From the IMG/VR virus record IMGVR_UViG_3300021400_005359: a DNA stretch of 64,000 nucleotides; one strand, 5' to 3'. Made by a program: the position numbers and the translations under genes. Positions 2,525 to 35,145 of the stretch are shown here, piece by piece (the first letter of the stretch is position 1; the number at the start of each line of letters is the position of its first letter). The DNA comes from an uncultured virus (IMG/VR IMGVR_UViG_3300021400_005359). Taxonomy: Duplodnaviria; Heunggongvirae; Uroviricota; Caudoviricetes. The notes beneath the pieces are model-generated. The model was given only the letters and a program-made list of their open reading frames with translations, was not told the origin of the DNA and did no database searches.

Positions 2525-4058
2525 ATCTTGTACCATCTGTTACGATAACAGTTCTATCTGCTTCTTCATTATATCCTAAAGGAGTATCTGAATCTGTATA
2601 ATTAGAATCATATTCTGCTGTTTCATTAGGATTAGTAACAGGACTAGGATTTTTTGTATTTAAATTTACATTTCCAACAACATTATTCTGATTCTCATTA
2701 GTATTACTATCAATATTATTGTTTGTCCAAGCAGAAGAATTATTATCACTTGATTGAGTATCAACGTCTTCATTATTTACTCTATCTGCAGAACTATTAG
2801 TTGAATTATTGTTAGAACCATTTGTGTTAGAATTTGTTGAATTTCTGTTGGAGCCGCTTGTACCATTTCCAGTACTTGAATTAGTTGTTCCGTTAGAATT
2901 CATTGTAGTTCCTCTACTTCCGCTACCATTACTGCTTTCAGAAACACTTGTTCCATCAATATTACCAATTACTTTACCATCTTTATCGATAATATTTCCA
3001 TTCATATCAACTCTAGTACCTTCTTCAGAATTTCCATAAAGTTCATTTAAGATAACTTCAAATTCTTCATCAGAAATATCTTCAGGTTTAGCAGTTTCAG
3101 TATAATTTGTAGTTGCATCAACTTGAGTGTCAATATTTACTTCATCAGCAGGAACAAGTTCAATCTTTTGTTCTCCTGCATTATAGAAGTCACCATAAGC
3201 TTTTGATGAAGGCTTGATATCCATTAAAGCATTAAAATCATTTGTAAGTAAATAATCATCAGAAACAATAATAAATGCCATATAAGCCTTTGGAGTTATT
3301 CCTCTAATCTTAGATAAGAAACCAAAGAGAGGTTTGTTATTAGTTACAAGAAAAATCTTTTCATTTGAACTATTCCATACAGATTGCATAGTAAGTTTTC
3401 CATTTAAGATTGACTTAGTCCAAAGATTCTTGTCATATTTTCTTGGCTGTCCAGTAGCCCATTTATTATTTTCTCTATAAAGTTGTTCATATACATAATG
3501 AATATTAACTGCAACATCTTGATGAAGAGAAGAAAGTTCATCAAGATTAGACTGACTTAAATTAGCTTCATAAAGAATAGCTACAAGCTTATTATCTTTA
3601 AATAAATATGTAGGAAGCCAAGTTAAATTAAATAAAGTCTCATAATCACAAGTAAGATAATTATCACCATAGTCGATTAAATTACCTCTTTCTTCTATAG
3701 CAACATCATCCATAGAAGAACCCCAAGCAGAGTTTCTTAAAATCAAAGAATGAATTGCTTGCTGTTCTTCATTCTTTTCTACAGCTTCTTGATTTAATAA
3801 ATTTCCAATATCAAATAAAGAATCTCTTTCTTCTTTAGACATTCCAAGGAACTTAACAATACTGCCAATAAGTAAAACTAATATAATAATAGCAGCAGCT
3901 CCATAAGAAATAAGTTTCTTCTTATCCATATATCTAAATTTCGAATAAGATTTCTTTTTAGGCTCTTCTACATAAAATTCATTACTATTTAAATCTTCTT
4001 CAGACAATAATTCATTTTCTGTATTATTCTTTTTCTTAAAAATATCTTTTAAGGACAT
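2523..4058 (-). CDS. Single-pass membrane protein with Ser/Asn/Thr-rich low-complexity C-terminal tail
   Basis: 511-aa ORF with hydrophobic segment YGAAAIIILVLLIGSIV; S/N/G/T-rich tail; start overlaps the stop of the upstream gene at 4058. Confidence 0.75.
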   Translation of the reverse strand: MSLKDIFKKKNNTENELLSEEDLNSNEFYVEEPKKKSYSKFRYMDKKKLISYGAAAIIILVLLIGSIVKFLGMSKEERDSLFDIGNLLNQEAVEKNEEQQAIHSLILRNSAWGSSMDDVAIEERGNLIDYGDNYLTCDYETLFNLTWLPTYLFKDNKLVAILYEANLSQSNLDELSSLHQDVAVNIHYVYEQLYRENNKWATGQPRKYDKNLWTKSILNGKLTMQSVWNSSNEKIFLVTNNKPLFGFLSKIRGITPKAYMAFIIVSDDYLLTNDFNALMDIKPSSKAYGDFYNAGEQKIELVPADEVNIDTQVDATTNYTETAKPEDISDEEFEVILNELYGNSEEGTRVDMNGNIIDKDGKVIGNIDGTSVSESSNGSGSRGTTMNSNGTTNSSTGNGTSGSNRNSTNSNTNGSNNNSTNSSADRVNNEDVDTQSSDNNSSAWTNNNIDSNTNENQNNVVGNVNLNTKNPSPVTNPNETAEYDSNYTDSDTPLGYNEEADRTVIVTDGTR

Positions 4059-4609
4059 TATTGTTTAATCCTCTCTCTTTTATTTATTCTAATCAAATCA
4101 AGTGTTTTAAGTGCAAGTATAATATTTATAAAATACATTTTAGTATTTTTATCTTCTGTTTCAAAAAGTTTAGCAAATATCTGTTTATTTAACTTTCTAT
4201 TATCACATTCAGCCCAAACTCTAAATTGGTCTGAATTAACAATAAAAGGATTTCCTTGATTTAGAATTTCATATTTATCATCTTTATTAAGTCCAATTCC
4301 AAAACCATTCTTAACTGGAGACAAAATTTTTAACTTATCAAAAACCGAATCAACATCACTAAAATCAAGTGGTACAATAAGTTTAGCATCTAATAAGTTA
4401 TTAATTGATTTATAAATGTCAAAGTTAAAAGCTTTTACAATGTCTTGTTCTTCTTTTACATCAAAAAAACAATATTTCCAAACATTGTAATCATTTAACG
4501 TAAGTCCAATAAATTCTCCTTCAAGTTCTACATTAAAAACTCTTTGAAGTTCTTCAATCTCACAAAGTCCAAGAGGATAACCTATGGACATATAATATTT
4601 TTTTGCCAT
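4058..4609 (-). CDS. Hypothetical protein with apparent internal two-fold repeat
   Basis: 183-aa ORF translationally coupled to both neighbours. The two halves share a G-x-x-[LI]-G ... [YF]xVW ... L-x-x-x-x-LI pattern. Confidence 0.7.
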   Translation of the reverse strand: MAKKYYMSIGYPLGLCEIEELQRVFNVELEGEFIGLTLNDYNVWKYCFFDVKEEQDIVKAFNFDIYKSINNLLDAKLIVPLDFSDVDSVFDKLKILSPVKNGFGIGLNKDDKYEILNQGNPFIVNSDQFRVWAECDNRKLNKQIFAKLFETEDKNTKMYFINIILALKTLDLIRINKRERIKQ

Positions 4610-10329: not shown

Positions 10330-10411
10330 AAAAAATCTCCAATCTAAAATTAATTCAAACTTATTATATATTAGTTTTAAATTTTTTTCAAAAATAGGTA
10401 GTTTTAAGCAT

Positions 10412-10654
10412 AAAAAAAAGCTCTTGAAGAAGAGCTTGAAAGTCGATATATACGCAAGACTTAAAGAAGTCCTATAATATCAAGCCATCGATAAGGGAAA
10501 ACCCTAATCGCTAGCGACCTGTTATTGTATGAACTGGTTTAAGCACCAATCCACAAGATAACTACTGAATAACTTCAGTAAGTATCGAGAGCCTCTCGAA
10601 AACAGGTCAAGCTAAGTAGCTTGATGAAATTCCTCAGTTTTTAATATCAATGAT
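10412..10654 (-). ncRNA. Candidate structured non-coding RNA (about 240 nt), family not recognised
   Basis: GC-enriched intergenic island with nested stems (10479-86/10618-25 and 10516-23/10601-08 enclosing three hairpins). Mismatches resolve to G-U on the minus strand. TATAAT at 10666-10661 and U-tailed terminator at 10437-10412. Confidence 0.6.
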
Positions 10655-10800
10655 TAATATATTATATAAAGAAAAGAACAATATTATTCTAAATTTTATA
10701 AAAATTTTAAACTAAAAAATAAAATACCAAAATTTTTATATATAACTAAAAAAAATCTATTATAAAGAATAAAAAATTTGTTTAGAGAGGTTTTTAAAAA

Positions 10801-13353: not shown

Positions 13354-13385
13354 AAAAGAGAAGGAGTTATGCTCCTTCTCTTTTT
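13352..13385. terminator. Bidirectional intrinsic terminator
   Basis: AAAAAGAGAAGGAG-TTATG-CTCCTTCTCTTTTT; the loop contains the stop codon of the 13367-13705 gene. Confidence 0.85.
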
Positions 13386-13705
13386 ATGTCAAAGAAATCT
13401 TGTGTTAAATCTTCGTAAATAAACCTAATAAAAAAATCATTTCTTAGAACTTTTTTTAATATTGGAAACAAGATATTAAACTTTTCCATATCAATTCCTT
13501 TCTTTGAAAAAATACTATCTATATTTCCTTTATCATCAAAACTTAAAGAAATTCCCATAGATGAAAATAAAAATTTTAAATTATCAGGACATTCAGGAAT
13601 TTCCAAAAGTCTAAAAATTTCAGAATTTTCGTCTAAGAGGATTGTTAAATCTATTAAGTTATTATTTGAAATAAAAAAATTTTGTTCAACAATATAACCT
13701 TTCAT
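13367..13705 (-). CDS. Hypothetical protein
   Basis: 112-aa ORF with AGGAGG SD. Confidence 0.7.
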   Translation of the reverse strand: MKGYIVEQNFFISNNNLIDLTILLDENSEIFRLLEIPECPDNLKFLFSSMGISLSFDDKGNIDSIFSKKGIDMEKFNILFPILKKVLRNDFFIRFIYEDLTQDFFDIKREGA

Positions 13706-13820
13706 AAATATACCCTCCTAACATTAGTATATCATAAACGTATTAAATCTTAAAGTATATTGAAAAAATTTATAAATTTTTATATTATAAAAACATAAAA
13801 AGAAAGGTTAGGAAAAAATC

Positions 13821-14384: not shown

Positions 14385-14397
14385 TCCTCTTTTTTTT
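14366..14397. terminator. Bidirectional intrinsic terminator
   Basis: AAAAAAAGAGGATT...AATCCTCTTTTTTT spanning the 14384 stop and abutting the pilin stop. Confidence 0.85.
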
Positions 14398-14605
14398 ATA
14401 ACTGAAATTCGTTAGTTCCAGGAACCTGAATGCTTTCTACAGTTTTACCTGCACAACCATTGAACCATTTATACACATAATGACCAAATACAAAAAGTCC
14501 AGCTCCAACACCAAGAGCAACAGCAATTCCAACAACCTGCTCTACGTTTGGACCACCACATTCATTTGCAAGTGCGTTGTTTACTCTATTAAGAAATCCT
14601 TTCAT
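14396..14605 (-). CDS. Flp/type IVb-like prepilin (copy 2); start revised to ATG 14605
   Basis: MKGFLNRVNNALANECG|GPNVEQVVGIAVALGVGAGLFVFG: short leader, Gly at -1, Glu at +5, then a hydrophobic helix. The GGAGG SD precedes ATG 14605. Confidence 0.75.
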   Translation of the reverse strand: MKGFLNRVNNALANECGGPNVEQVVGIAVALGVGAGLFVFGHYVYKWFNGCAGKTVESIQVPGTNEFQL

Positions 14606-14733
14606 TTTTTTAACCTCCAAATATTAAATATATTATATAATATTCTTTTAATTGATTATAAATTACTTTTTAAGAAATAATAAAAAAGGAAGTCAAACGA
14701 CTTCCTTTTTTTGTATAATTAATTTACAATTAA

Positions 14734-14952
14734 TTACCATCCCTTAGTTGTAAATGATTCACCCTTAGGAGTCTCGATATCAGTTACAGTCTGACCAGCA
14801 CATCCGTTGAACCACTGGAATACACTTCTACCAAAAAGGAAAAGACCAACACCAACTGCAAGAGCAACTGCAATACCCATAACCTGCTCTACGTTTGGTC
14901 CTCCACATTCATTTGAAAGTGCGTTGTTTACTTCATTAACAAACTTCTTCAT
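14734..14952 (-). CDS. Flp/type IVb-like prepilin (copy 1)
   Basis: MKKFVNEVNNALSNECG|GPNVEQVMGIAVALAVGVGLFLFG; paralog of the adjacent gene, with its own GGAGG SD and a terminator at about 14682-14711. Confidence 0.75.
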   Translation of the reverse strand: MKKFVNEVNNALSNECGGPNVEQVMGIAVALAVGVGLFLFGRSVFQWFNGCAGQTVTDIETPKGESFTTKGW

Positions 14953-15170
14953 TAATTTAACCTCCGATTTTGTTTTTGTATAATGTTCTTTAGAACAATA
15001 TACCTTATAAGATTATAATTTAAATTATAATTTAGAAGAGTTTGAGGAAAAAGAAAAGCCTTTTCTTCTGTCTTAAAAATTATATATTATATAATACTCA
15101 GAGAGTAAAAAAATTATAAAAATTTTTATTCTAAAACTTGTTTTATTGTTTTATAAAAGTGTTTTAACTA

Positions 15171-18398: not shown

Positions 18399-18581
18399 TT
18401 AAAAAAGCTCCTTTTATATTAATTCATTCTTTATTATATCTAAAATGGGAAAAAAATCAATAAAAAAAGAGGCTTAAAAAAGCCTCAGAAAAAACATAAT
18501 AAAAGTAGGTAAAACCTTAATGCTCGACAGAGCAGATGTTTTTTTATAAATAAAAAGCTTTAAGAAGCTTTAAAAATCATC

Positions 18582-18866
18582 TTAAGCCTCTTCAGAATCC
18601 TCAAGAGCCTTCTCGTATGCACCAAGAATTGCACCAACGAGCTCATCTCTTGCTTCCTTAGTGATAGGATTGAAGATGTTTGAATACTTCTTCTCTCCGC
18701 CAGACTCATACTGTCTCTGAGGCATTGAAGCGAACAGACCGTTCTTTCCTTCAACAACTGCGATATCGTTAAGAACGATAGCATCCTCAATTACAACAGA
18801 CGCATAAGCCTTTCTTGCACTTTCAGGATTCTTTACAAGTCTCATAGAGGTAACATCAATCTTCAT
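18582..18866 (-). CDS. spoVG: SpoVG-family nucleic-acid-binding protein
   Basis: KAYASVVIEDAIVLNDIAVVEGKNGLFASMP...YSNIFNPITKEARDEL..AIL.AY matches the SpoVG pattern. AAAGGAG SD; terminator at 18462-18486. Confidence 0.92.
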   Translation of the reverse strand: MKIDVTSMRLVKNPESARKAYASVVIEDAIVLNDIAVVEGKNGLFASMPQRQYESGGEKKYSNIFNPITKEARDELVGAILGAYEKALEDSEEA

Positions 18867-18918
18867 AGTTTTAAAATCTCCTTTACGTTTGGTATTTTGA
18901 TTTGATGTTTGTTGGTTT

Positions 18919-18995
18919 GTATGTACTGTCTGGTAGTAAGATATCTTCCGATATCAGGGGCCCCGAGGGCAAAACCAGAGAACAGAAACACACAC
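18919..18995 (-). promoter_or_regulatory. Structured 5' leader element of spoVG (three-way junction)
   Basis: Closing stem 18929-34/18974-79, extended by 18919-24/ACACAC. Hairpins GATATC-GGAA-GATATC (GNRA loop on the minus strand) and GCCC-TCG-GGGC. TATAAT at about 19050-19045. Confidence 0.6.
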
Positions 18996-19204
18996 GCCTA
19001 ACATTTCTCCTAGAAATTTATTAAATAAATTTTAGAATTAATATATTATACTGTATAAAAAGATGAATATAACTGTTTTTATGAAAATTTTTAAGAAAAT
19101 TTTAAAACCTAAATATTATTTAGTAAAGCCTTAAAAATATTTATTTAAATGTTTTTCAATGTATATTATGAAATAGAAAAATTTTTTGAATAGGAGATAT
19201 TATT

Positions 19205-21630: not shown

Positions 21631-23868
21631 ATGAAAATGTCTGAATTGCAAGCTATTTCACAATTCGCTGAACAATACCAAGACGGTTCTGTTCAAGACG
21701 AAAATATATATGGTGAAATACTTCTTAAGTTTTTAAGCTGGTTAGGCTATACAGAAAGTTCAGTCATCGCTGGAGGAGCTTTTAATATGTCATCAGAGAT
21801 GACATTCCAATATGCTTTAAAAATCTACGATGACAATTCAAGTGATAGAGTTTATATTAAATTTTGTAGTATGGGTGAAGACCTTTCAGGAATGGAAGAT
21901 TTAATTAAACAAACTATCGTAGCTCAAAGAAATGAAGATGGAGTAACAAAATACTATATCATTACAAATGGAATTCTTTACAGAATATACAGTAATACTC
22001 CAAATGGAATGAATTTAGTAAATTTAAAAGAAGAAAAAATAATAAATATCGTTGATATAAAAGATTCTGATTATCCAATTTTAGAAGCTATTTCTCTTCA
22101 AGGTTTAAGAGGAGAAAATCCTAAAATGGAAATAGACAGAGATTTAGAGTTTGACGAAGAACCTGAAGAAGAGGTTGAAGAAGAAAAAGTAGAACAACCA
22201 AAAGAAAAGAAAGAATTTAAACTTCCAACATTTGATGAAAAAACAGTTGATTTAGCAAAGAAAATAGCTTTGGTAGCTCTTGGAATTATAATTCTTCTTC
22301 TTGTATTTAAATTCTTAACAGCAAAACCTGGTGAAACAAAAACCGATGAAACAAATGTAAATGTAAATATCAGTTCTACTTCAAAAGATATTAAGACAGC
22401 AGATTCAACTCCTGTTCAACTTAATTCTAATTTAGTAAATGTATCAGCTGTTCTTGATTTATCTGTAAGCAAGAACGATACATTAAATATCAAGTTCTTA
22501 AGTGACCTTGAAGAAGGTGCAATTGTTAAACTTGGAATCTTCTGTGGAGATAATTCAAATTATTCTTATCAGACAATAGATTCTACTGGAACATTTAATG
22601 GAACTTTCCAAATCCCTACTACTTGGGGAGACCAAAAGGTAACAGTTGGAGCATATTTAAGATTTGATGAAAATGGTTATAGTCAACCAAAGAATGTAAC
22701 AGATAAATATGGTAAAAACGGAGAAAAGATTAACTGGAAAAAAGAATATTCCGCTAATATGTTAACTTACTCTGAGATTAACCATAGTAATCAACTTGTT
22801 GAAGCTCTTCTTGCTAAACAGAAAGAAGAAAGAGAACTTCAATTAAAGAACGCTTTCCAGAAAGACTTTGCTTATATTGATACAAGAGTTGATGCTTTTG
22901 GAAATATTAAGCACGTTCCTGCAGGATTTAGCTTTGATGAAACAAATATTACAGAAGCTAGAAACATTTATCCTATGATTTATTATGATAAGGCTTCAAA
23001 TACTTCTTACTTATATATTATTTGTGGATATGCTGGAACACAGTTTGTAAGATTTGAAAGTGTTGGTTTCTCTGCTGATGGTTATAACTGGTCATATGAT
23101 AATGGAACAAATATTAAGAAAGATTCAGTTGTTGGTAATAAGAAAGCGGAATGGATTTATTTCAACAACGTTGATACTCCTCAGTTAATAAACGATATGG
23201 GACTTTTATCTAACTCAAATGATACACAAATGTATCTTGTAGGAGCTATAAGTCCAACATTTAATATAACAAATGAAGATAAGGCACTTATCAGACAATT
23301 CCTCGCAATTTACGAAACATATTATGGAAATGGAACTTTTATTCCTGATGTTTCTTGGTTTAAAAATGGAAGTAATCAAATAACTTTAAATTATATTAAA
23401 GAACCTTATGAGATGAGAGAAAGAAGTTCAGCAGAACTTAATAGCTTAGAAGTCCTTCAGGACTCTATGAGCCAAAAGAAATTAAATAATGAAAAGATTT
23501 CAAAAGAAGATGAAGACCTTCTTGCTTTAATGAAAAAAACATTTAGACCTGTATCAAAGACAATCAAAGGAAAGATTTATAGCTCATTAATCAATTCAGA
23601 GCCTCAAGCTCTTTACTATGATGATTATGAAACAGACAAAAAATTCTTTAAGATTTACTTTGTATATGCTAATGCAGGAGAGATAGAAGAAGGTTACATT
23701 CCTTATATTAACGTTTATGAAGATAAAACAGTTTTAGTTCCAATTAAGACTATTACATCTTCTACTACATCAACTGACAAAGTATTTGCTAAATATGAAA
23801 TTACAGATACATTCTATAATGAGTTAAAAACTTACTTTGCAAATACAAGTTATGAGCAATTTGATTAA
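21631..23868 (+). CDS. Membrane protein with degenerate HsdR_N-like (type I restriction R N-terminal) cytoplasmic domain and large extracytoplasmic region
   Basis: N-terminus ILLKFLSWLGY...FQYALK...VYIKFC..GEDL...YIITNGILYRIY; acidic linker; TM IALVALGIIILLLVF; about 500 aa C-terminal to the TM. Confidence 0.6.
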   Translation: MKMSELQAISQFAEQYQDGSVQDENIYGEILLKFLSWLGYTESSVIAGGAFNMSSEMTFQYALKIYDDNSSDRVYIKFCSMGEDLSGMEDLIKQTIVAQRNEDGVTKYYIITNGILYRIYSNTPNGMNLVNLKEEKIINIVDIKDSDYPILEAISLQGLRGENPKMEIDRDLEFDEEPEEEVEEEKVEQPKEKKEFKLPTFDEKTVDLAKKIALVALGIIILLLVFKFLTAKPGETKTDETNVNVNISSTSKDIKTADSTPVQLNSNLVNVSAVLDLSVSKNDTLNIKFLSDLEEGAIVKLGIFCGDNSNYSYQTIDSTGTFNGTFQIPTTWGDQKVTVGAYLRFDENGYSQPKNVTDKYGKNGEKINWKKEYSANMLTYSEINHSNQLVEALLAKQKEERELQLKNAFQKDFAYIDTRVDAFGNIKHVPAGFSFDETNITEARNIYPMIYYDKASNTSYLYIICGYAGTQFVRFESVGFSADGYNWSYDNGTNIKKDSVVGNKKAEWIYFNNVDTPQLINDMGLLSNSNDTQMYLVGAISPTFNITNEDKALIRQFLAIYETYYGNGTFIPDVSWFKNGSNQITLNYIKEPYEMRERSSAELNSLEVLQDSMSQKKLNNEKISKEDEDLLALMKKTFRPVSKTIKGKIYSSLINSEPQALYYDDYETDKKFFKIYFVYANAGEIEEGYIPYINVYEDKTVLVPIKTITSSTTSTDKVFAKYEITDTFYNELKTYFANTSYEQFD

Positions 23869-23872
23869 GAAT

Positions 23873-23906
23873 AAAAAAGGGAAGCAAAAAATGCTTCTCT
23901 TTTTTT
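23873..23906 (+). terminator. Intrinsic terminator
   Basis: AAAAAAGGGAAGCA-AAAAA-TGCTTCTCTTTTTTT. Confidence 0.8.
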
Positions 23907-23969
23907 GTAAAAATTTCAATATAAAAGAATATATAAGACAGTTTCAAAATATAATAAATTATACTAACG

Positions 23970-24301
23970 TAAATGGTAGGAATTATTTTTAATGCAAAAG
24001 ATTCATTTATCTTTTCGAGTTATCGGTTAATTAAACTTTATTTTACTAGTTAAAAATGCTAAACATCTTTTGCACCAAAGAGTCGCAAAAGCTTACGCTT
24101 TTAACTTAAAATCGCCAGTTCTTTCTGGCTTAACTTTTACTAATTTTGCGAAAGCAAATATTTAAAAACAAACTTACGATACGTATCTCGGCACAGGCAT
24201 CCGTTTGATGCAAAATGAAACCATATCGACTTGTTTATTTGCCGTTTTTTCTTAGTCGAAACAAAAAAAGAGTTTCCAAAGGCCTAGGAGCTCTTTTTTT
24301 T
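23970..24301 (+). ncRNA. Candidate structured non-coding RNA (about 330 nt), family not recognised
   Basis: Multiple stems (23993-24002/24065-74; 24114-18/24125-29; TTTGC-GAAA-GCAAA 24145-58; 24197-201/24207-11; 24226-31/24254-59). TATAAT at 23950-55. Terminator 24261-24301 whose stem needs G-U pairs on the plus strand. Confidence 0.5.
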
Positions 24302-24307
24302 GTTGCC

Positions 24308-24520
24308 TTAATTTTCCTCAATAAAGACATTACAGTCGCTATTTTCTTTAAAAGCTTTTTCAAGCTTTTCTAATTTCTCAGGATTTGTAATTTTTAAAAT
24401 TTCTCTATATTCTTCCCAAGGAATAGCAACCACATTTTTATCAGAAATTAAAACTTTTTCATTCAAATCTTCTTTGTTTTCAAACATATCCAAAAATTCT
24501 TTAAATGTAAATTCTTTCAT
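24308..24520 (-). CDS. Small hypothetical protein
   Basis: 70-aa ORF with GGAGG SD. Confidence 0.65.
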   Translation of the reverse strand: MKEFTFKEFLDMFENKEDLNEKVLISDKNVVAIPWEEYREILKITNPEKLEKLEKAFKENSDCNVFIEEN

Positions 24521-24712
24521 AAAACCCTCCAGAAATCGCTTTTTCTAATAAAATATTAATATAAAATTTTCAATTTTTCAATAATTTTTGCAAAATTATT
24601 AAAATTCGCTTGTTTTTTTAATAATATATGTTATAATTAAATTAAGATAAATGAATTAAAAGAAATTTTAGTTTGTATAATAAAGTATAAGAAATGTTTT
24701 AGGAGGAATTTT

Positions 24713-25288
24713 ATGGAATCAGTATATAGAAAGGTCCCATATGATAAGGAAAAGATTGATAAGGTGATTGAATCTTTTAAGGCTAGAAATTTAAAGCCTG
24801 AAGACATTACAATTATCTTTGATATGGACAATACTCTTTGTTTGTATTCTAGAGATGGTGACGATGCAACAGCACTAAAGCTTATGTGGAACAAGAATTA
24901 TTATAAGAATCTTCCTTGTTTCCAAGAAGCTCCTGCAGTAATTGAACTCTTGCAGAAGATGGGCTTTAAGATTAAAATTCTCTCCTCTTGCATTAATTCT
25001 AAGTATTGTAAGAAGGAAAAAATTGATTGGCTACATTATCACCTTCCTTCAATTAAGGATGAAGATATCATTCTTATTGATAACGGAGAAAATAAGTCAG
25101 ATTACATTAAGAACATCGAGAATTGCATTTTAGTAGATGATTATTACAAGAATCTTATGGATTGGTATGATGCTGGTGGAATTGCTATTAAGAAGACCTA
25201 TTCAGGTAAAGAGCGTCCTATTCCTCAGTGTTCATCTCTTGTAGAAATCATTGGAATCCTTTGGGACTTAGGTGTAATTAAATCATAA
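24713..25288 (+). CDS. HAD-superfamily 5'(3')-deoxyribonucleotidase-like phosphatase (NT5C-like)
   Basis: Motif I IFDMDNTL; ILSS; KIDWLHYHLP; K...ILVDDY..NL..W..AGG.AI. Confidence 0.85.
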   Translation: MESVYRKVPYDKEKIDKVIESFKARNLKPEDITIIFDMDNTLCLYSRDGDDATALKLMWNKNYYKNLPCFQEAPAVIELLQKMGFKIKILSSCINSKYCKKEKIDWLHYHLPSIKDEDIILIDNGENKSDYIKNIENCILVDDYYKNLMDWYDAGGIAIKKTYSGKERPIPQCSSLVEIIGILWDLGVIKS

Positions 25289-25839: not shown

Positions 25840-28800
25840 TTAAAGCTCTAAGTATTTAATCGTCTTGATTAATAGATAAGATATCTCAGCTCTTGTTAAC
25901 TCTCTAGTTCCATTTCTATCATCATCTGAATCAATAATACCCATAGACATTAAGTGGATAGCTTCTTGAGCACAATCACTAAGTCCAGTTGGAGCACTAA
26001 GTCCTGATTCATTATGATATTGGTCATAAAGAATAGTTGCTGAAATAAGTTTTACAACTTCCTTAAATGTAACAGCTTTATTAAGTGTATATGTAGAAAT
26101 TGTATCATCTACTTCTTCTTGACTCATATTAATTAATATGTTCTGAGATGAATAGTAATCGTAATCTTTTTCAGATAAGTTAAGTGTTGTAACAATCTTA
26201 TTAATCTCAAAATCACTATCATATATAAGTCTAATTCTATTAAGCATTGTAAGGAACTCTTTAGTAGTCATCTTGTTTACAGGTTTATACTTGTTATCAA
26301 GATAATTTCCAATAATTCCTTTTTCACAAAGAGTTTCAATGTTACTTCTAGCATCAGAACCAATAATATCTGTGAATTTAGATATGTATGGAGTAAGAGC
26401 AATTACCTCAAATTTAATATTTCCAAGACTATCATCTACACAGTTAATTACATCAATTTCTTTTCTTCCAGAAGATGTAAATGAAATAGTTCCCTTCTTA
26501 TCAGTAACAACTCCATCTGATACATTGTCAACTACACACATAGAAACATCAGCTTCTGTGCCTTTAAGTGCAGTTGTAAGATTTATAGTATCTTTTAGTT
26601 TATAAGTATAAGCAAAGTTTTCTTTACTTAAGTCTATTTGACTCTTAGTATCTTTTATACTATCTACAACAAGAACATAAACATTAAGTTCTTTTCCGTC
26701 TTTTACAAATCTAATAGTTCCAATTCCAGGTCTATTAGCAGAAACCATACTTCCTGTTCTTGTTAAGATATCTCCATCAGCATACCAAGTAAGTCCGCTG
26801 ATATCACCAAATTGTTCAGTAAGCTTGTACTTAAATGCAAGTGAAACATCAAGGTCACTACCTGTCTGAACAACTATAGACCTATGAGATTTACCAGTAT
26901 TCAAAGCTCTAACATTTAATCCAAGATACTTATTAGTCTGTGTATCATAGAAACTAATAAATCCATCACCAGTTAAGTTCATATACACTTTGTTGTTCTT
27001 AGTATAGAAACTTACTGAATCAGACTTATTCTTTTCTGATAAGTAAAGATTTGAAGCATCAAGTCCATATGTAGAAGCTATATAAGCATACCAATAAGCA
27101 AGTGTCTTAGTATCTGTACTACTAATATATAAATGGTCTTTAGGATTCAAAGACTCATACAAAACTTTGTTTGAACTTAAGTTACTTCCTGTGCTAACTC
27201 TAAGTCTAGTTACATTTCCAGCAGCATCTCTAACTTTTACAAGGACTGTTTCTTTAGAAAGAATAACAGTATTGTTATTAGCAATGTAATTATCTCCAGA
27301 ATTTCTAGAACCTTCAATTGAGAAACTATAAGGAGTTTCATCAAATCCACCAAGGTCATAAGCTGAAACATAAAGTCTGTTCTTAGAGAACCAAACCTTA
27401 GTAATTACAGGAGCTATTGTGTCTTTCATTCTAACAAGTCCATTGTAAAGAACAAGATAAACTTCTTCACTAGCTTCCTTTACTGCTGAAATTCTGTATT
27501 TATAAAGAACAGAATCTTCAAGTCTAGGACAATCAATAGAAGATGCTTCATCAAGTCTAATCTTATAAACAACTCTTCCTGTATTATAATCAAGGATTTC
27601 GAATAAGTAGTCATATTCTTTCCAATCAATATCTTCAGGAATATCTGAAGGAACAGGAATAGGTTGGTCAGGATTTACAGGTGTAGGAGTATCAGAAGGT
27701 GTTCCTGAAGGTGTTCCAGAAGGTGTACCTGAAGGAGTTCCACTAGGAGTTCCTGAAGGTGTACCACTAGGATTTTCAACTTCTTCAGAAATATCACCAG
27801 GAGCCTCACCCTTGTAAACATAATTATCTTTAAAGATATAGAATGTTTCTTCGGTTTCAGCATCTAAAGTATCTATCAAAGATACAGTAATATTCATAGG
27901 AATATTAATTTCCTGAATACCAACTCTCTTGTAAATCTGTTGATTAGCTTTAATTGTCTGACCAGCTGGAATGCTAAGCCATTTACCGATTGAATTGTAT
28001 CCTTCGTAATCTGATGTAATACTCATATTATCAAGAGGAGTAAATCCATAAGCAAATGTTCTTAAGTTTCCATCAGGGTCAATACCTTCTACATATAAAT
28101 GTCCTTTATATGTATAAACATTTTGAATAACAGGAGCGTTATTCTTTATTTCAGGGTCTTCACTTCCACTAAATCTATTTTGAGCTTCAGGATTTTCAGG
28201 AGTTCCATATACAAGCTGTGTCTCACTAGAAATAATAACAGTTTGACTAGAAGTATTTCCTGCAGCATCTACAGCATAAACTGTAAGTCTAGTAGGAACT
28301 TTAATTGCTTGTTGAGCAGCTCCGTGCCAAATAATAGTTCCCTTAGGAATAACTTCGTTTTCAGCAAATGAAATAGTCTTACCTGAATCATCTGTACCAG
28401 TTGTTACACCTGAAGATTCAGTGTCGTTAAGCCATTGATATCCATAACCTGTAACAGCTAAGTTATCTGTAGCTTCAATATATAAAACACCATCCATAGC
28501 GTAAACAGCTTTAATTAATGGAGCAATCTTATCTGTCTGTCCAGAAGAATCTCTTGCTTCAAGAAGCATTTCGTAAATAGTCTGACTTACTGTTCCAAAA
28601 AGAACTGAATTATCTTTATCTTCTGAAACATCAACAGTAACAATATCTGACTGGTTTCTTGCTATATCGTAAACAGAAAGTTCTACTTTTGCTTCAGCAA
28701 TAGTTCCATCTTCATTTTTAACTGCTTCCATAAATCCACCAACTTGACCAAATGAAGTATTTGTTACAGTTCCTTCATATTTCTGAGACTCAGGAAGTAA

Positions 28801-31800
28801 ATTTCCATCACTATCAAAGTCAGCGTTTGTAAGTCTTCTACCATATTTTGTTCCAGCATTAAGAACAAGATTTCCATTAACAGTTACATAAGAAATATCT
28901 TTTGATGTAGTCTTATCTTCTCCATCAACGAAAGATAAGTAATCAAATACATAGTTAACACCTTGAGAAGAATTGATTCCTGAAGCAGGAATACCATTTT
29001 CTTCATCTGGATTATCTGTTGCAACTATATAAATTTGTCCTTTATATAAGAATGCACCAGTAATTTCAGGTTTCTTAGTATCTCTTCCGTTAGCATCAAT
29101 AGCTGACTTAATTTCATCAATAATACTCTGAGAAGCATATCCAGCAATAAAGAATTCGTGCCAATCTGTAGTATTATATAAATCTTTTCTCGTTAATGTC
29201 CAAGGACCAGTAATCTTAGTACTTTCTAAACCAGCACCATCAACTGCTCTTACATTTACAACAACTTTTCCTGTATTCATATCTACAGGGAATACAAATT
29301 CATTTGAATTAAGAGGAATACTTATCTCATTAACGTTATCGCCTCTCTTATAAGTATAAGTATTTCCCATTCCATCTGTAAAACTAAAGTCTATATCAGT
29401 TACGAAAGGTTCTAAAATATCAACATAGTATTTACTAATACCTGTTACATCAGAAACAACAATATTTCCGTGTTCATCATAAGAAGATTCAGCAGCAACT
29501 TTACTTCCATTAGAATAAACATATCCATCAGTCCCTATAGTTCTACCTTCGAAAAGTTGAATCTTATATCCATTCCAAATTGAGTTATCTTCTGTCTGAT
29601 ATGTGTGAATGCTCTTACTATCAACTGTACTTGCTAATTGACTAAATGTTTTTGTATATTGTTTTTCAAGATTTAATAAATCTTGACTAGATAATCTCTT
29701 TACAAGTCTAGTAAATGAAACAGTGTCTGAAATATAATCTGTTTCTACTAAATTAAGATTTGTCTTAACATCATACATTTCGCAAAGAGAAACCATTCTA
29801 AATGTTTCATCTGCTCCAGCAGGGTTAGTTGTATTATTTCCAGTATTCTTTGTTTTCGCTTCAGAAAATCTTACTTCCCAAGTCTTTGTCTCTCCGTTTT
29901 CAGTAAATGTAAACTGTTTAACTTCAGGACAAGTCATTTGATAAGAAATAGCATTTCCGCCAGCAGGAGTATATGTATAAGTGATAGTTCCACTTAAATT
30001 TCCAGTAACAGTTCCGTGATTAGCATCTAAAGTGATATTTGAATCACTATCTGTAACTCTACCCTTTGTTGCAATTGTATATGTATTAAGAGGTCTCTTT
30101 GTTGTAATAGAAAGTTTCATATCAGGATTTCCAGAAGAAATTTCTTTATACATCTTTCCATTAACAATGTAAAGATTATCACTTGATATATATTTGTTTC
30201 CATCTACATTTATAACAGTGTCTATATATTCACTTCCGAGTACTTCACCTTTAGATGAAAGTATCTCAACAGTCTTAGGAGTATTATCATAATCAACAGA
30301 AGAATCAAGTCTACTGTAAAGAACTTTATATGTTTTTCCGTCTAAAGTATATTCTTTAACAATAACATCATTGTTATCTGTTATCTTATAATACTTTCCA
30401 TTTGAACTCTTATATGTTGCAATTCCATCACCATCAACAGTTGTTAAATCAACAGTCTTGGCATCTTTATCTGAAATCTTACTGTAGTAAACAGGAACAT
30501 TATCAAATGTATATTCCTTATAAACTCTCTCACCTTCACTGTTAAATATAGTTTCATAAGCTCCTGGGTCAGTAGCACTAATCTTAAGAGTATGATTTAT
30601 CATATAAACAGCATCGATAATAGGAGGAATAACATCGTTTTGTTCAATAGCTCCCATATACCAATCAGAACCTTCAGGTGTTGCAAAATTACTTGAATCC
30701 TTCCAAGAAGGACTATTTAAATCAAAAGCAATACCTTCACTTGATACAGCACCAGAAATTACATAAACAAGGTTTCCAAAGTTTGGAATATAGAATCTAA
30801 GTTCATCAATATCTTTAGCAACCTTACCTTTATAACCATTGTTGTTATCAAAAGGATTGTAAATATTTCCACAACTATCAAAGAAAGTAATCCAATAGTT
30901 GCTTGTATTTTCTGTAGGCTGAATATAATCAAGTCTCTTTGTTATAGTCTCAGGGTCAATAAATGTACCAAGCATAGCACTTATTGAAGAATCAGAGAAT
31001 GTAACATTTTCATATTTAGAAGCACTTATTGTAGAATTCTCAATGGCCTCAATATCTTTATTTATCCACTTGATATCATCTGCTGAACAAATTCCAACAT
31101 TTCTGTTTTCATCAGTTCTTGATGATGTCTCAGATAAAGTATAATCCTTTGCTATAACACTACCAGTTTCAGCATCAATTGTAGCTTTATAAGCTTTTCC
31201 TTGAGGTCTAGAATCAACAACATTAAGCTGTGCATCATAATATCCATAATTTCCAGAAGGAGTAACAACCCAACCAGTTTCTTCTCTAAACCAGTTGCCA
31301 AGAGAATCTTTAGTTCCCATAGTAACAACTTTTCCGTTGTAATCAGTGTATTTTCCTTCTGAAGTATATTCACTTATAGAACCTTCAGCTTTAAACTGAA
31401 CAGCTTTGTAATACTTATGAGTATGAGAAGGGTCACTTACTTTTTCTCCAGTAGGAGTGTAGTAATAATCAACAGTTTCTCCCATATCTGACCATTTCCA
31501 AGTCCAAGTACCTTCATATTCTGTTCCTTCACTATCATAATAAACTTCAACAGCATTTGAAGGAATTTCTCCTGTAGTTTGAGAAGGTTCTCCTACTTTG
31601 TTATAAGTAAAGTGTCCTTCTTCTGAAGTTGAGAAATCTTTACTATATCTAGTAACTCTTCCGTTTGGATGTTGAGAGTAGTAATATAAAACTTGTCCAT
31701 TCTGAGCTTCTTCAAAAGAAGTATCAAATGAAGAAATCTTTCCGTTCTCAGCAGATATAGAAATATAAAGCTGAGGACTCTCCCACTTTCCAGTAGAAGT

Positions 31801-34800
31801 ATTCCATTCTTGCCTATAAATAGTCATAGGATAATCATTAGCTACAATGTCTTTAGCCCCTGAACCAGTACTTCCGACAGAAGAACTAAATTTGAAAGCA
31901 TCCTTAGACATATATGCAAAGTATGTTAAGTTTCCTGCTTCATTCTTTTCCTGAGTAACAATTACATAAGGATAAGCATCTGTACCAACAATAATTTCAT
32001 CATATAGACTTGTTGGCTTTGTAGCTGAAATATCAGCAACAGATAATGCCTCAGAAACTATAAGTGACTGAGAGAATGAACTAGAAATAACCTCATTACC
32101 AAATTCATCATTTATATTGACATTAGAATAAATAATTGAGTTTATAGCATCTAATGCTTCAAAATACATTCCATCTTCTGATACATAGTTGTTTAAGTAG
32201 TTGTTCTCACTTGTCCAAGAATTTGAATAGAAAGTCTTTAATACTAAACCTCTAATATCTGAACCACTACGTACAGAATTATTAAATTTAATACCATTTT
32301 CAGTAATTGTAAGACCACCAACAATAGAAGGGTCATACTCTAAAGCTTGGAAGCTTCCATTTGATTTTTCATAAATAATGAAGTTGTATCCATTAGAAGC
32401 ACTATAGATAGGAATATATCTAAAGTAATCAACCTTAGACTTCCATTCTGTAGGCCAAGGCTCAACACCTTTCCAAGCTGAATTTCCATCATTAGTATAT
32501 CTTAAACGAGATTCAAAAGATGCTCTATCATAAGGAATGAAATCTGAATAAGAAGCAACATCTTCTGTAATCTTCTTCCAAGTATTCTGAACTAATGCAT
32601 ACCATTCTCCACTAGGAAGTTGAACATCGTCACCATCAACAGTTATAACTGAATCAGAAACAAAAGCATAAAAACCAATAGTATTCTTTAAGAATATGTA
32701 TTGTTTTTTATTTGAACCAACAACTTCTGTTAAACCAGGAATACCAAAAGTTCTAATCTTTGGAGTTCCATCTTCATAGAAACCACTCTTACTAAGAATA
32801 ACATCATTTTTATTTCCCTTTGAAACAAGGTCATAATTTATAAAATCTATAGAACTTAAGTTTGCTTGAGTTGGAAGCATAATAAGTCCATCAGATAATT
32901 TCTCTATATAGTTTTCATAGAGCCAATTCTCAGAAACATATCTGAAAATTTCAATATTTACTGAATCTGAACTAAATACTAACTGTCCAGAATTGTAAAC
33001 AGGCTTTTCGCTCGTGTAGAATAAAAGCTGATATTCACCATAGTTAACTAATGTAGCAAAAGGACTTACCATTCCGTTAACACTATCTGGAAGTTCAGGA
33101 TATCTTCCTTCTACTGGAAGTGTTGTAACTAAAGGTTCAACATTTAATGCTTCCCAGTTTTCCATTATATCAGATGAATAATCAGGAGTTAAATACATTT
33201 CAACAAGACTTTCAGTTCCATTATTCCTTAAGTTTCCTGATAAGCTTACATTAAATGTGTTCTGATAAATTGAACCATCCTTTGTAACACTACCAATAAC
33301 TGAGAAAGAATTGAAAGCATCAATGTTTTTAACTTTGCTTCTATAAAGAGTAATGTTATCAGCTTTAAGTTTAAGATTTGAATATTCACTACCATCATCA
33401 ATTGATACAAGTTCTAATCTTTCTGAACTTGAAGATGATTCAGCATAATAAATACTCTTTCCATTTTCAGAAACATAAACATTATCACCTGTTGAATTTA
33501 ATGAAAGTTTAAAATCAACTCCAACAGTTTTCTCTTCAATATAAGGACTTGTAACTTGTCCATATAATCTATAATTTGTAATTCCGTTCAAAATTTCAAT
33601 ATGTGTCATATCATCACTAGAAGAAGGATTAGAAAAGCTTGTCTTAGAACTGAAAGCTTTCAAGTTGATTTCCTTCAAGAAGTTCTGACCACTTAAAGAA
33701 TCACTATTATAAAATACATCGTTAACATAATAAGCACCATTATTTAAAGTGAAAGTTGACTGATAATTGTAATCCATATAATCAGTATAGAGCATAAGTC
33801 TATTTGAAGCATTATTATTAAAGTCTTTTAAATAAGAAAGTGCATTTACATAAGATGCATCATTTTTATCATTAGTAAATCTAATAAGTACATAAATATT
33901 CTTACCAACTTTTATATCGCTATTTGTACTGCAAGTAAATATAGCAGGAAGCTTAATTACAAAAGTTCTAAGTTTTGAAGAATCTCCTTCGTTAAAGTTA
34001 CTAGGAGCAAATACTCTAACACTTGAAATTTGCTTTGAATAGCTATCTGCAAGTACAAATGAAATCTTGTAACCATCTTCTGTTTCATAAGAAATTTCAT
34101 CAGAATTTTCACTTCTAGTAATAGAAGGATAAATCTGTCCATTTGCACCAAAGCTTGCAACTATAGCATTTTGAGTTGAGTTAGAATCATCTTGTGTACC
34201 ATAAAAAGCTACAGGAATTTCATCACCACTTTCAAGATATGTAAAACTTGAAGGAAGTTGGATTGCTTCACCATTTGTATAAGCTTCAACACCACTAGAA
34301 GCAATATTGAATTCATCATAAGTAAAATCAGCAAGGTTGTATTCACCAAAACTTGTATCAGTATTTAATAATGCAATAGCCTTGAAGAATCTACTAATTG
34401 AATAATCTGTATCGGTTACATAAGAACCATTAATATTGTACTGAGGAAGATATGTTACTTCAGAAGTATCAAACTTCTCATAGTTAATAAAGTTCTTATT
34501 TATAATCTTTTGACCTTCAACAACTGTTCCTGTTTCAGTTTCATAAGTTTTTCCATCTGGAGAAGTCTTTCCACCATAACCTATAATATATTCTCCATAG
34601 ATACTTGGAACATACGATGATAAACCAAAACCATCAATGTAACCAACGACTCCATAAGAACCACCAATAGCATCAACAGTATAGAAGTTTGAAGTCATAT
34701 CTAAAATCTGACCATATACCTTAGAAGTTCCAACATTTGAAATCTTACTATCCTCTTCAATAGTAGATGTTGTACGTTCTTGCCAAGCCATTGAACCTTG

Positions 34801-35145
34801 GTCATAAGAATACTTTTTAACAGTAACTAAAGAATTTGCAATATCAGAAGCACTAGCTCTAACACCAAGTCCTTTCTGGTCCGATAAGAAGTATAAAGGA
34901 TGGCTTGACTGATATAAGTAATAACTTACATTAGATAAAGAACCTTCAATCTCTGCAGTTAACAAAGAATATGGACGTTCCGAATCAGTAGCTATATACT
35001 TAAGCTCTAAGTCTGATAGAATATCAGCTTTAGGAGCCTTATCTGGCCAAACAATGCCTGTAATAAGGATAGCAATTACCAAAACTATTGAAATAATTGC
35101 TTTGTTGTATTTAGTTAAAAAATTGCTAAAAGATGAATTCTTCAA
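25840..35145 (-). CDS. Giant (3101-aa) cell-surface protein with C-terminal SLH domains and repeated Ig-like modules
   Basis: N-terminal signal/TM. Repeats DVIPPIIDAVY, DTKKPEITGAF, DKIAPLIKAVY, NNAPVIQNVY and DTIAPVITKVW, each followed by L.[IV].A.D-like strands. SLH motifs FTDIIGSDA...GIIG...YKP...TTKEFLTML and LTRAEISYLL. Confidence 0.85.
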   Translation of the reverse strand: MKNSSFSNFLTKYNKAIISIVLVIAILITGIVWPDKAPKADILSDLELKYIATDSERPYSLLTAEIEGSLSNVSYYLYQSSHPLYFLSDQKGLGVRASASDIANSLVTVKKYSYDQGSMAWQERTTSTIEEDSKISNVGTSKVYGQILDMTSNFYTVDAIGGSYGVVGYIDGFGLSSYVPSIYGEYIIGYGGKTSPDGKTYETETGTVVEGQKIINKNFINYEKFDTSEVTYLPQYNINGSYVTDTDYSISRFFKAIALLNTDTSFGEYNLADFTYDEFNIASSGVEAYTNGEAIQLPSSFTYLESGDEIPVAFYGTQDDSNSTQNAIVASFGANGQIYPSITRSENSDEISYETEDGYKISFVLADSYSKQISSVRVFAPSNFNEGDSSKLRTFVIKLPAIFTCSTNSDIKVGKNIYVLIRFTNDKNDASYVNALSYLKDFNNNASNRLMLYTDYMDYNYQSTFTLNNGAYYVNDVFYNSDSLSGQNFLKEINLKAFSSKTSFSNPSSSDDMTHIEILNGITNYRLYGQVTSPYIEEKTVGVDFKLSLNSTGDNVYVSENGKSIYYAESSSSSERLELVSIDDGSEYSNLKLKADNITLYRSKVKNIDAFNSFSVIGSVTKDGSIYQNTFNVSLSGNLRNNGTESLVEMYLTPDYSSDIMENWEALNVEPLVTTLPVEGRYPELPDSVNGMVSPFATLVNYGEYQLLFYTSEKPVYNSGQLVFSSDSVNIEIFRYVSENWLYENYIEKLSDGLIMLPTQANLSSIDFINYDLVSKGNKNDVILSKSGFYEDGTPKIRTFGIPGLTEVVGSNKKQYIFLKNTIGFYAFVSDSVITVDGDDVQLPSGEWYALVQNTWKKITEDVASYSDFIPYDRASFESRLRYTNDGNSAWKGVEPWPTEWKSKVDYFRYIPIYSASNGYNFIIYEKSNGSFQALEYDPSIVGGLTITENGIKFNNSVRSGSDIRGLVLKTFYSNSWTSENNYLNNYVSEDGMYFEALDAINSIIYSNVNINDEFGNEVISSSFSQSLIVSEALSVADISATKPTSLYDEIIVGTDAYPYVIVTQEKNEAGNLTYFAYMSKDAFKFSSSVGSTGSGAKDIVANDYPMTIYRQEWNTSTGKWESPQLYISISAENGKISSFDTSFEEAQNGQVLYYYSQHPNGRVTRYSKDFSTSEEGHFTYNKVGEPSQTTGEIPSNAVEVYYDSEGTEYEGTWTWKWSDMGETVDYYYTPTGEKVSDPSHTHKYYKAVQFKAEGSISEYTSEGKYTDYNGKVVTMGTKDSLGNWFREETGWVVTPSGNYGYYDAQLNVVDSRPQGKAYKATIDAETGSVIAKDYTLSETSSRTDENRNVGICSADDIKWINKDIEAIENSTISASKYENVTFSDSSISAMLGTFIDPETITKRLDYIQPTENTSNYWITFFDSCGNIYNPFDNNNGYKGKVAKDIDELRFYIPNFGNLVYVISGAVSSEGIAFDLNSPSWKDSSNFATPEGSDWYMGAIEQNDVIPPIIDAVYMINHTLKISATDPGAYETIFNSEGERVYKEYTFDNVPVYYSKISDKDAKTVDLTTVDGDGIATYKSSNGKYYKITDNNDVIVKEYTLDGKTYKVLYSRLDSSVDYDNTPKTVEILSSKGEVLGSEYIDTVINVDGNKYISSDNLYIVNGKMYKEISSGNPDMKLSITTKRPLNTYTIATKGRVTDSDSNITLDANHGTVTGNLSGTITYTYTPAGGNAISYQMTCPEVKQFTFTENGETKTWEVRFSEAKTKNTGNNTTNPAGADETFRMVSLCEMYDVKTNLNLVETDYISDTVSFTRLVKRLSSQDLLNLEKQYTKTFSQLASTVDSKSIHTYQTEDNSIWNGYKIQLFEGRTIGTDGYVYSNGSKVAAESSYDEHGNIVVSDVTGISKYYVDILEPFVTDIDFSFTDGMGNTYTYKRGDNVNEISIPLNSNEFVFPVDMNTGKVVVNVRAVDGAGLESTKITGPWTLTRKDLYNTTDWHEFFIAGYASQSIIDEIKSAIDANGRDTKKPEITGAFLYKGQIYIVATDNPDEENGIPASGINSSQGVNYVFDYLSFVDGEDKTTSKDISYVTVNGNLVLNAGTKYGRRLTNADFDSDGNLLPESQKYEGTVTNTSFGQVGGFMEAVKNEDGTIAEAKVELSVYDIARNQSDIVTVDVSEDKDNSVLFGTVSQTIYEMLLEARDSSGQTDKIAPLIKAVYAMDGVLYIEATDNLAVTGYGYQWLNDTESSGVTTGTDDSGKTISFAENEVIPKGTIIWHGAAQQAIKVPTRLTVYAVDAAGNTSSQTVIISSETQLVYGTPENPEAQNRFSGSEDPEIKNNAPVIQNVYTYKGHLYVEGIDPDGNLRTFAYGFTPLDNMSITSDYEGYNSIGKWLSIPAGQTIKANQQIYKRVGIQEINIPMNITVSLIDTLDAETEETFYIFKDNYVYKGEAPGDISEEVENPSGTPSGTPSGTPSGTPSGTPSGTPSDTPTPVNPDQPIPVPSDIPEDIDWKEYDYLFEILDYNTGRVVYKIRLDEASSIDCPRLEDSVLYKYRISAVKEASEEVYLVLYNGLVRMKDTIAPVITKVWFSKNRLYVSAYDLGGFDETPYSFSIEGSRNSGDNYIANNNTVILSKETVLVKVRDAAGNVTRLRVSTGSNLSSNKVLYESLNPKDHLYISSTDTKTLAYWYAYIASTYGLDASNLYLSEKNKSDSVSFYTKNNKVYMNLTGDGFISFYDTQTNKYLGLNVRALNTGKSHRSIVVQTGSDLDVSLAFKYKLTEQFGDISGLTWYADGDILTRTGSMVSANRPGIGTIRFVKDGKELNVYVLVVDSIKDTKSQIDLSKENFAYTYKLKDTINLTTALKGTEADVSMCVVDNVSDGVVTDKKGTISFTSSGRKEIDVINCVDDSLGNIKFEVIALTPYISKFTDIIGSDARSNIETLCEKGIIGNYLDNKYKPVNKMTTKEFLTMLNRIRLIYDSDFEINKIVTTLNLSEKDYDYYSSQNILINMSQEEVDDTISTYTLNKAVTFKEVVKLISATILYDQYHNESGLSAPTGLSDCAQEAIHLMSMGIIDSDDDRNGTRELTRAEISYLLIKTIKYLEL
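27688..27771 (-). repeat. 12-bp period coding repeat: (PSGT)x6-PSDT linker
   Basis: Seven 12-nt units with synonymous variation inside the surface-protein gene. Confidence 0.85.

Follow-up and report, generated by a model that had tools for sequence, protein, structure and literature searches.

The par locus (Fst RNA I/RNA II) of the Enterococcus plasmid pAD1 is a type I toxin-antitoxin system with a bidirectional terminator that is common to a convergent transcript. RNAs of the ROOL and GOLLD type are roughly 600 to 800 nt long and contain many covarying helices. In the accessible parts of two reports, ROOL and GOLLD appear as large and ornate RNAs that are carried by bacterial mobile elements in rumen and gut datasets (PMC5737381; 10.1101/2024.12.08.627333). 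Here we analysed an intergenic region in a 64,000-nt stretch of DNA (hereafter the window) that a sequence-only reading had put forward as the site of a novel non-coding RNA (ncRNA) or ribozyme-like RNA. We compared the region with a related metagenomic locus, searched it against RNA family models, evaluated its folding and coding potential, and examined contigs from RNA libraries that cover it.

Genomic setting

The window is AT-rich (GC content of approximately 30%) and reads as part of what is probably a large conjugative, plasmid-like element, because its predicted products include a TrbL/VirB6 protein and a VirB4/TraG-like ATPase and the latter matches Bacillota plasmids. The VirB4-like ATPase is 55-67% identical to ATPases encoded on Bacillota plasmids of 127-722 kb, with matches to megaplasmids of Aneurinibacillus, Brevibacillus, Paenibacillus, Bacillus, Geobacillus, Jeotgalibacillus, Clostridioides and Clostridium. 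The Clostridioides match lies on a 300-kb plasmid, on which the matching ATPase gene is located inside a PrgI/VirB4-type transfer module. RecD2, a 5'-3' exonuclease, an NAD-dependent ligase and FtsH are also encoded in the window. Among the 34 window ORFs scanned, 24 have no Pfam family, and 17 of the 18 window ORFs tested have no match in PHROGs. The minus strand carries three giant ORFs of 3101 aa (25840-35145), 3733 aa (42975-54176) and 1617 aa (54392-59245), and these have no Pfam family, save for one sub-threshold GDSL-lipase-like stretch in the 3733-aa protein. Near-identical DNA is present in gut metagenomes (20 of 24 listed runs, from 11 studies), several of which are labelled bovine, sheep or goat. 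The host of the element is best read as a low-GC, Bacillota-type bacterium of the ruminant gut that is so far uncultured.

The region under study is a gap (23869-24307) between a plus-strand gene encoding a 745-aa protein and a convergent minus-strand gene encoding a 70-aa protein (Table 1). The sequence-only reading had described it as an approximately 440-bp gap with no long ORF, isolated by the terminator of the upstream gene. Both points hold: there is no ORF of at least 60 aa in the gap, and the 745-aa gene is followed by its own hairpin (23881-23897) and T-run. All of the sequence motifs listed in that reading were found at the positions it gave for them. The 745-aa protein matches no Pfam or PHROG family; a hydrophobic helix lies at its centre, and its C-terminal half is well conserved. 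Further gaps of 390-800 nt that contain no ORF of at least 120 aa occur in the window at 10330-10800, 13354-13820, 14385-15170, 18399-19204, 37885-38296 and 39881-40274, and none of these is similar to the RNA region by blastn or by covariance model.

Table 1. Positions of the RNA locus, its parts, neighbouring genes and related features in the window (L002 is the related metagenomic locus; X15, X16, X17 and X20 are RNA-library contigs).
Feature	Position	Strand	Basis or remark
745-aa gene (upstream neighbour)	21631-23868	+	own hairpin and T-run at its end
Promoter -10 region ATATAATAAA (TATAAT at 23950-55 inside)	23949..23958	+	conserved in L002
Predicted primary transcript, ~340 nt	23962..24301	+	5' end placed from the -10 box, 3' end from the T-run
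GGTAGGA near the 5' end	23975..23981	+	identical in L002
10-bp stem TGCAAAAGAT / ATCTTTTGCA	23993-24002 / 24065-74	+	perfect complementarity
Hairpin H1, AAAAGAT/ATCTTTT	23996..24015	+	in the MFE structure; 6/7 pairs kept in L002
Block CTTTTGCAC with 7-bp GCAAAAG partner	24067..24075	+	identical in L002
Variable middle, lineage-specific hairpins	24076..24173	+	37-47% column identity to L002
Hairpin AAAAGC-TTAC-GCTTTT	24087-24102	+	sequence
Hairpin GCCAG/CTGGC	24114-29	+	sequence
Hairpin TTTGC-GAAA-GCAAA	24145-58	+	sequence
Conserved 3' module	24181..24262	+	87-93% identity to L002 in 30-nt windows
CGGCA and TGCCG, proposed pseudoknot partners	24189-93 and 24240-44	+	sequence
Hairpin GCATC/GATGC	24197-24211	+	sequence
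Hairpin TCGACT/AGTCGA	24226-31 / 24254-59	+	sequence
Bidirectional intrinsic terminator: A-run, GAGTTTC...GGAGCTC, T-run	24263..24301	.	common to the convergent 70-aa gene in the window
70-aa gene (convergent neighbour)	24308-24520	-	no Pfam or PHROG match
NT5C-like gene, next plus-strand gene	start 24713	+	410 nt past the RNA terminator, behind the convergent gene
TrbL/VirB6-like protein and VirB4/TraG-like ATPase	59344-63998	-	domain match
ATATAATAAA upstream of minus-strand genes	1459-1468, 18430-18439, 54249-54258	-	10-mer recurrence
RNA-library contigs	X15 23975-24378; X16 23984-24182; X17 23980-24288; X20 24014-24273	no strand	metatranscriptome

Conservation in a related locus

The 745-aa neighbour has 12 relatives (P0001-P0012) among 5.8 billion proteins, all of which are metagenomic and none of which is named; P0002-P0012 are 41-75% identical and are encoded on contigs of up to 90 kb. 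No relative was found in species genomes, viral contigs or the plasmid collection. A metagenome scan with an alignment of the relatives recovered seven loci (L001-L007). L001 is identical to the window. L002 encodes a neighbour protein that is 73% identical and has the gap region, L003 ends 55 nt after the neighbour gene, and the downstream DNA of L004-L007 (neighbour protein 35-36% identical) is unrelated. The comparative evidence consists of one sequence pair, the window (= L001) versus L002, which makes the covariation statistics thin.

Third codon positions within identical residues of two flanking genes, which served as a neutral yardstick, are 64-66% identical between the two sequences. 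The promoter and 5' segment, in which GGTAGGA, H1 and CTTTTGCAC are kept, is 57-67% identical across alignment windows. The middle (24076-24173) is less conserved than synonymous sites, with 37-47% identity and indels. The last ~125 nt (24189-24308) are 83-93% identical in 30-nt windows, with one window at 70%, a level at which this 3' module equals codon positions one and two in the neighbouring genes. Part of its high identity could come from recent exchange between elements rather than from selection. L002 has a 160-nt spacer (L002 positions 5665-5826) ahead of the NT5C-like gene and no copy of the 70-aa gene, and the latter looks like a small gene that was gained or lost beside the RNA.

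Base pairing and folding

Several helices differ between the two sequences in ways that keep them paired. The hairpin TCGACT/AGTCGA is CTGACT/AGTCAG in L002, with two double changes and all six pairs kept, and its 22-nt T-rich loop is invariant. The H1 stem changes from AAAGAT/ATCTTT to AAAGAC/GTCTTT through one double change (U-A to C-G), and GCATC/GATGC changes to ACATC/GATGT, also through one double change with 5/5 pairs kept. With the observed number of substitutions placed at random in the 3' module, 2 of 100,000 trials preserved pairing through at least three double changes among the 18 pairs that had been specified in advance. A column-shuffle control gave 57/500, on a scale whose floor with two sequences is about 1 in 8. 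An alternative helix, GCACAGGC/GUUUGAUGC, is preferred by RNAalifold and by single-sequence folds and explains the GCATC change equally well, as two one-sided changes. In all, two hairpins keep pairing through three double changes, and the fourth double change (GCATC/GATGC) has this alternative explanation. The 3' module consists, in order, of single-stranded TATCTCGGCACAG, the hairpin GCATC/GATGC (or the alternative helix GCACAGGC/GTTTGATGC), AAAATGAAACC, and the hairpin TCGACT/AGTCGA.

Other pairings from the sequence-only reading are real in the window but poorly kept in the related locus. The 10-bp stem, perfect in the window, keeps only 6/10 of its pairs in L002, and the three hairpins of the middle keep 3/6, 1/5 and 1/5 pairs, with other hairpins taking their place there. 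The GCAAAAG partner of CTTTTGCAC can be supplied in the window from 23994-24000 or from 24085-91, and in L002 the CTTTTGC block pairs with a GCAAAAG directly upstream (GCAAAAG-ACAA-CTTTTGC). The 5' GGTAGGA may pair with TTTTAC at 24041-46 (TTCTAC in L002, one G-U to G-C change), in a helix that is absent from the minimum free energy (MFE) structure of the window. GGUAGG has three candidate long-range partners, namely the loop, CCUACU and UUUUAC; these pairings exclude one another and are not the same in L002 as in the window.

The plus strand of the region (23960-24301, 342 nt) has a folding energy of -70.3 kcal/mol compared with -57.4 +/- 4.2 kcal/mol for 100 dinucleotide shuffles (z = -3.09). 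None of the shuffles was as good, in line with the earlier proposal of a structured RNA. The minus strand of the window gave a z of -1.67, with 8/100 shuffles as good. Both strands of L002 score alike (z = -3.47 and -3.63), so folding energy does not discriminate between the strands. Taken alone, the 3' module is no stabler than shuffles (z = +0.33 in the window and -0.06 in L002), and its conserved content is mostly unpaired sequence around one solid hairpin.

These data bear on whether the RNA works through a tertiary fold or as an RNA-protein particle (a sponge, scaffold or ribozyme-like RNA), with the TCGACT loop forming a pseudoknot with CGGCA or with the 5' GGUAG. Nearly all of the 125 nt of the 3' module are invariant, including loops and linkers, which is more than is typical for a seed-plus-terminator small RNA (sRNA). 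Both pseudoknot partners are conserved, the 5' (U/C)GGUAG can pair with UUGCCG in the loop (U-G to C-G in L002), and the overall fold is stable in both sequences (z = -3.1 in the window and -3.5 in L002). Set against this, the CGGCA/TGCCG candidate pseudoknot is just 5 bp long, is invariant in both sequences and competes with other pairings, among them the helix GCACAGGC/GUUUGAUGC. The absence of extra stability in the isolated 3' module, the lack of conservation of the middle hairpins, and the absence of matches to any Rfam ribozyme or large-RNA model also argue against such a fold, which we regard as unlikely.

Coding potential

A 12-codon ORF (MQKIHLSFRVIG) is present at 23992-24030 on the plus strand, as the sequence-only reading had noted. 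Judged from the comparison with L002, this micro-ORF is probably not a gene. The matching ATG is absent from L002, where an ATG occurs 15 nt further in, the length and sequence of the frame differ, and only five residues (SFRVI) are common to both. In L002, stops or frame shifts affect every ORF of at least 20 aa from the gap, including a 52-aa ORF at 24215, which has a stop after four codons there, and a 31-aa ORF at 24070.

The transcript might instead serve as an mRNA, for a small or leader peptide or in a type I toxin-like locus, with its Shine-Dalgarno-like GGUAGGA masked by structure. A spacing of 10 nt separates GGTAGGA from the downstream ATG at 23992, the SFRVI codons that are common to L002 have three third-position differences, and a 58-codon frame (23992-24165) is open save for one TAA. 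Like par of pAD1, the locus also has its bidirectional terminator in common with a convergent gene. Yet the start, length and sequence of the micro-ORF are not conserved, and the two sequences fall out of frame through indels of 4, 2 and 6 nt. Its 12-residue product has no membrane-spanning stretch, and the best-conserved part of the RNA, the 3' module, has no ORF that is shared by the two sequences. No conserved short hydrophobic toxin ORF of the kind found in type I toxin-antitoxin loci was detected, the 12-aa ORF being different in L002. There is no plus-strand gene before the terminator for a leader to control, and no regulated plus-strand gene lies downstream in the same transcript, as would be expected of a riboswitch or leader attenuator. 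We consider a peptide-encoding messenger highly improbable.

Promoter, terminator and strand

Fifteen bases around the -10 box are identical in L002, and their flanks are poorly conserved. We found no convincing -35 box upstream of the -10 box, and a generic promoter scan did not list the -10 site of the RNA locus. The 10-mer ATATAATAAA occurs five times in the window compared with 1.8 expected copies, and 7/100 shuffles reach five. Three of the other four copies are located 28-82 nt upstream of minus-strand gene starts, in matching orientation. In L002, a copy of the -10 motif is also found just upstream of the NT5C-like gene. ATATAATAAA has the look of a -10 region plus discriminator that this element favours.

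At the other end of the locus, the terminator stem GAGTTTC/GGAGCTC (24270-76/24287-93) is followed by an 8-T run that extends to 24301. The stem and loop are nearly identical in L002, with one U-G to C-G change; for the upstream gene's terminator, the shape is kept in L002 and the sequence is not. The terminator had been described as pairing well only on the plus strand. This does not carry over to L002, in which the core hairpin is stabler on the minus strand (-10.5 versus -7.2 kcal/mol), and both hairpins that flank the region are bidirectional. The plus strand is nevertheless favoured for the RNA, because the promoter on the left is conserved, because nothing beyond the terminator on the right is conserved, and because the RNA persists in L002 without the 70-aa gene.

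Contigs from RNA libraries

Six of the 24 listed runs are metatranscriptomes that contain part of the stretch, and we compared four of these, one from each of four studies. All four have whole contigs on the region (199-404 nt) with 0 differences from the window (Table 1). Contigs of this kind reveal neither strand nor true ends nor expression level, and RNA libraries can contain contaminating DNA. The left ends of the contigs in three of the four runs (23975, 23980 and 23984) fall within 10 nt of each other with no loose ends, which is a weak hint that the 5' end of the RNA lies approximately 20-30 nt after the -10 box. Contigs of the NT5C-like gene start separately, at 24709-24716 in three runs, and none of them joins the RNA region. 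Positions 23859-23960 have no RNA-contig cover in any of the four runs and most of the 745-aa gene has none in three of the four; we do not use these blanks as evidence.

It is very improbable that the region is not independent and represents the 3' untranslated region or read-through of the 745-aa gene on the plus strand, or of the 70-aa gene on the minus strand running to the hairpin at 23881-23897. Such read-through would fit the bidirectional nature of the two flanking hairpins, the strandless contigs, and contig X15, which runs 77 nt beyond the terminator into the 70-aa gene. It does not fit the retention of the region in L002 without the 70-aa gene, or the conservation of the -10 box but not of the sequence between it and the upstream terminator. 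In addition, none of the RNA contigs compared links the region to the 745-aa gene, and the three contigs that end at 23975-23984 are a further, weak hint.

The conserved 125 bp might also act at the DNA level, for instance as the conjugative element's origin of transfer, as a site for single-strand initiation or as some other protein-binding site, with its inverted repeats kept as DNA hairpins and transcription being incidental. The element has conjugation genes (TrbL/VirB6 and the VirB4/TraG-like ATPase), compensatory changes would keep inverted repeats in DNA just as in RNA, and fold energies choose no strand in L002. This alternative is made distinctly unlikely by the conserved -10 box and intrinsic terminator that bracket the region and by the discrete RNA-library contigs that fit those bounds in four studies. 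We recognised no relaxase or replication gene beside the region, and found no iterons, direct repeats or arrays of direct repeats in it.

The proposal of an independent ncRNA gene is supported by the conserved -10 box and 3' module, the compensatory changes, the lack of a conserved ORF and the discrete RNA contigs. We consider it probable that this is a separate ncRNA gene. Its autonomy is supported by the upstream gene's own terminator, by the retention of the RNA in L002 without the 70-aa gene, and by the separate starts of the contigs of the NT5C-like gene.

Searches for known RNA families and further copies

The earlier suggestion that the RNA is novel was supported by a cmscan search with Rfam 15 (4227 models), which gave 0 matches at gathering scores across the whole 64 kb. 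These models include tmRNA, RNase P, 6S, SRP, riboswitches, T-box, self-cleaving ribozymes, ROOL, GOLLD, OLE and raiA RNAs, and plasmid antisense RNAs. For 23700-24700, hits up to E = 10 were at chance level only, with 13-23 bits compared with gathering scores of 33-100 and E-values of 0.26-6.5, the lowest of which were 0.26-0.9. No Rfam model of a self-cleaving ribozyme matches, and ARAGORN found 0 tRNA or tmRNA genes in the window.

Exact patterns of the 3' module had 0 matches in viral contigs and 0 in genome contigs. Searching the region with blastn against plasmids returned one 114-nt and two 30-nt AT-rich matches, nothing meaningful, and the same search against phages returned nothing. 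A covariance model of the 3' module, run on the window and L001-L007, matched only its three training copies, and there is no second copy of the RNA within the window. The portions of the literature that were accessible held nothing on this RNA or element.

A possible mode of action

We put a probability of roughly 55% on the reading that the region encodes an independently transcribed plus-strand ncRNA (~23962-24301) of a conjugative element, with a functional 3' module that works in trans. Which strand is transcribed, where precisely the RNA starts and stops, that it acts in trans and what any target would be are all inferred. Transcription would start a few bases after the TATAAT and end at the T-run near 24301. 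The predicted RNA would have three parts: a moderately conserved 5' segment (GGUAGGA, H1, and CUUUUGCAC with its partner), a middle, and the 3' module. The middle may be a set of fast-evolving, interchangeable small hairpins. The 3' module (~125 nt, nearly invariant) would be mostly unpaired, arranged around one well-supported hairpin with a 22-nt U-rich loop, together with the terminator hairpin.

Of these parts, the 3' module is the one that most likely does the work; it may make sequence-specific contacts in trans, with RNA or with protein, as suggested by its near-invariant unpaired stretches and by the invariant 22-nt loop on a covarying stem. The leading option would be base-pairing with mRNAs, using the U-rich loop and the CUCGGCACAG stretch as seeds, and the second would be protein binding; the 5' and middle hairpins would mainly give stability. 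That the RNA acts by base-pairing is a tentative proposal, to which we give somewhat less than even odds.

Outside its own antisense, the best site in the window for the 22-nt loop covers the Shine-Dalgarno sequence and start codon of a 183-aa ORF at 4609..4058, in a start region at 4585-4649 on the minus strand. We rejected this site as evidence of a target: its predicted interaction energy is -19.0 kcal/mol, and 23/200 shuffled loops were as good on 77 start regions. The AUG of the 183-aa ORF directly follows the UAA of the upstream ORF.

A more far-reaching reading, which we think improbable, is that the 3' module is the core of a new functional-RNA class of giant conjugative elements in uncultured gut Bacillota, as the partner of one of the many unassigned proteins encoded by the element or as a pseudoknotted catalytic or ligand-binding fold. 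In that case CGGCA or the 5' GGUAG would be where the 22-nt loop docks, and the RNA would tolerate its variable middle as an expansion segment.

If the trans-acting ncRNA that we prefer is real, it would be an expressed regulator outside the known families, on a large conjugative element that mostly lacks Pfam matches. The conserved RNA module, which is more strongly constrained than first codon positions in the upstream protein gene, would then offer a concrete point of entry to the ways in which these elements regulate their own functions or their hosts, and the RNA would be worth an entry in RNA family databases. An orphan plasmid sRNA is by itself an ordinary kind of finding, and would become more interesting only if further homologues showed an elaborate conserved fold or a partner protein.

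Comparison with known systems

The locus resembles the generic class of trans-encoded sRNAs of plasmids and mobile elements in its sigma-70-type -10 box, non-coding body, intrinsic terminator and intergenic position, and its conserved unpaired stretches and hairpin loop could serve as seeds. It differs from them in its length, since ~340 nt is long for such RNAs, and in that its conservation resides in a 125-nt 3' module and not in a short seed.

With par of pAD1 it has in common that it is a plasmid-borne structured RNA of a few hundred nucleotides from Bacillota with a bidirectional terminator, and that a short ORF lies near the 5' end behind a ribosome-binding site that can be masked. Unlike par, this locus has no conserved hydrophobic peptide and no direct repeats for RNA-RNA contact, and its convergent partner, the 70-aa gene, is absent from L002.

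Like ROOL and GOLLD, it is an orphan RNA on phage- or plasmid-like Bacillota DNA, and the accessible parts of the reports on those RNAs describe them as coming partly from rumen samples. It is shorter than they are, has two or three supported hairpins, and gave no cmscan match to any Rfam model. What is new is an orphan RNA with no Rfam family and no match outside one metagenomic lineage; its kind, a mobile-element sRNA gene, is familiar.
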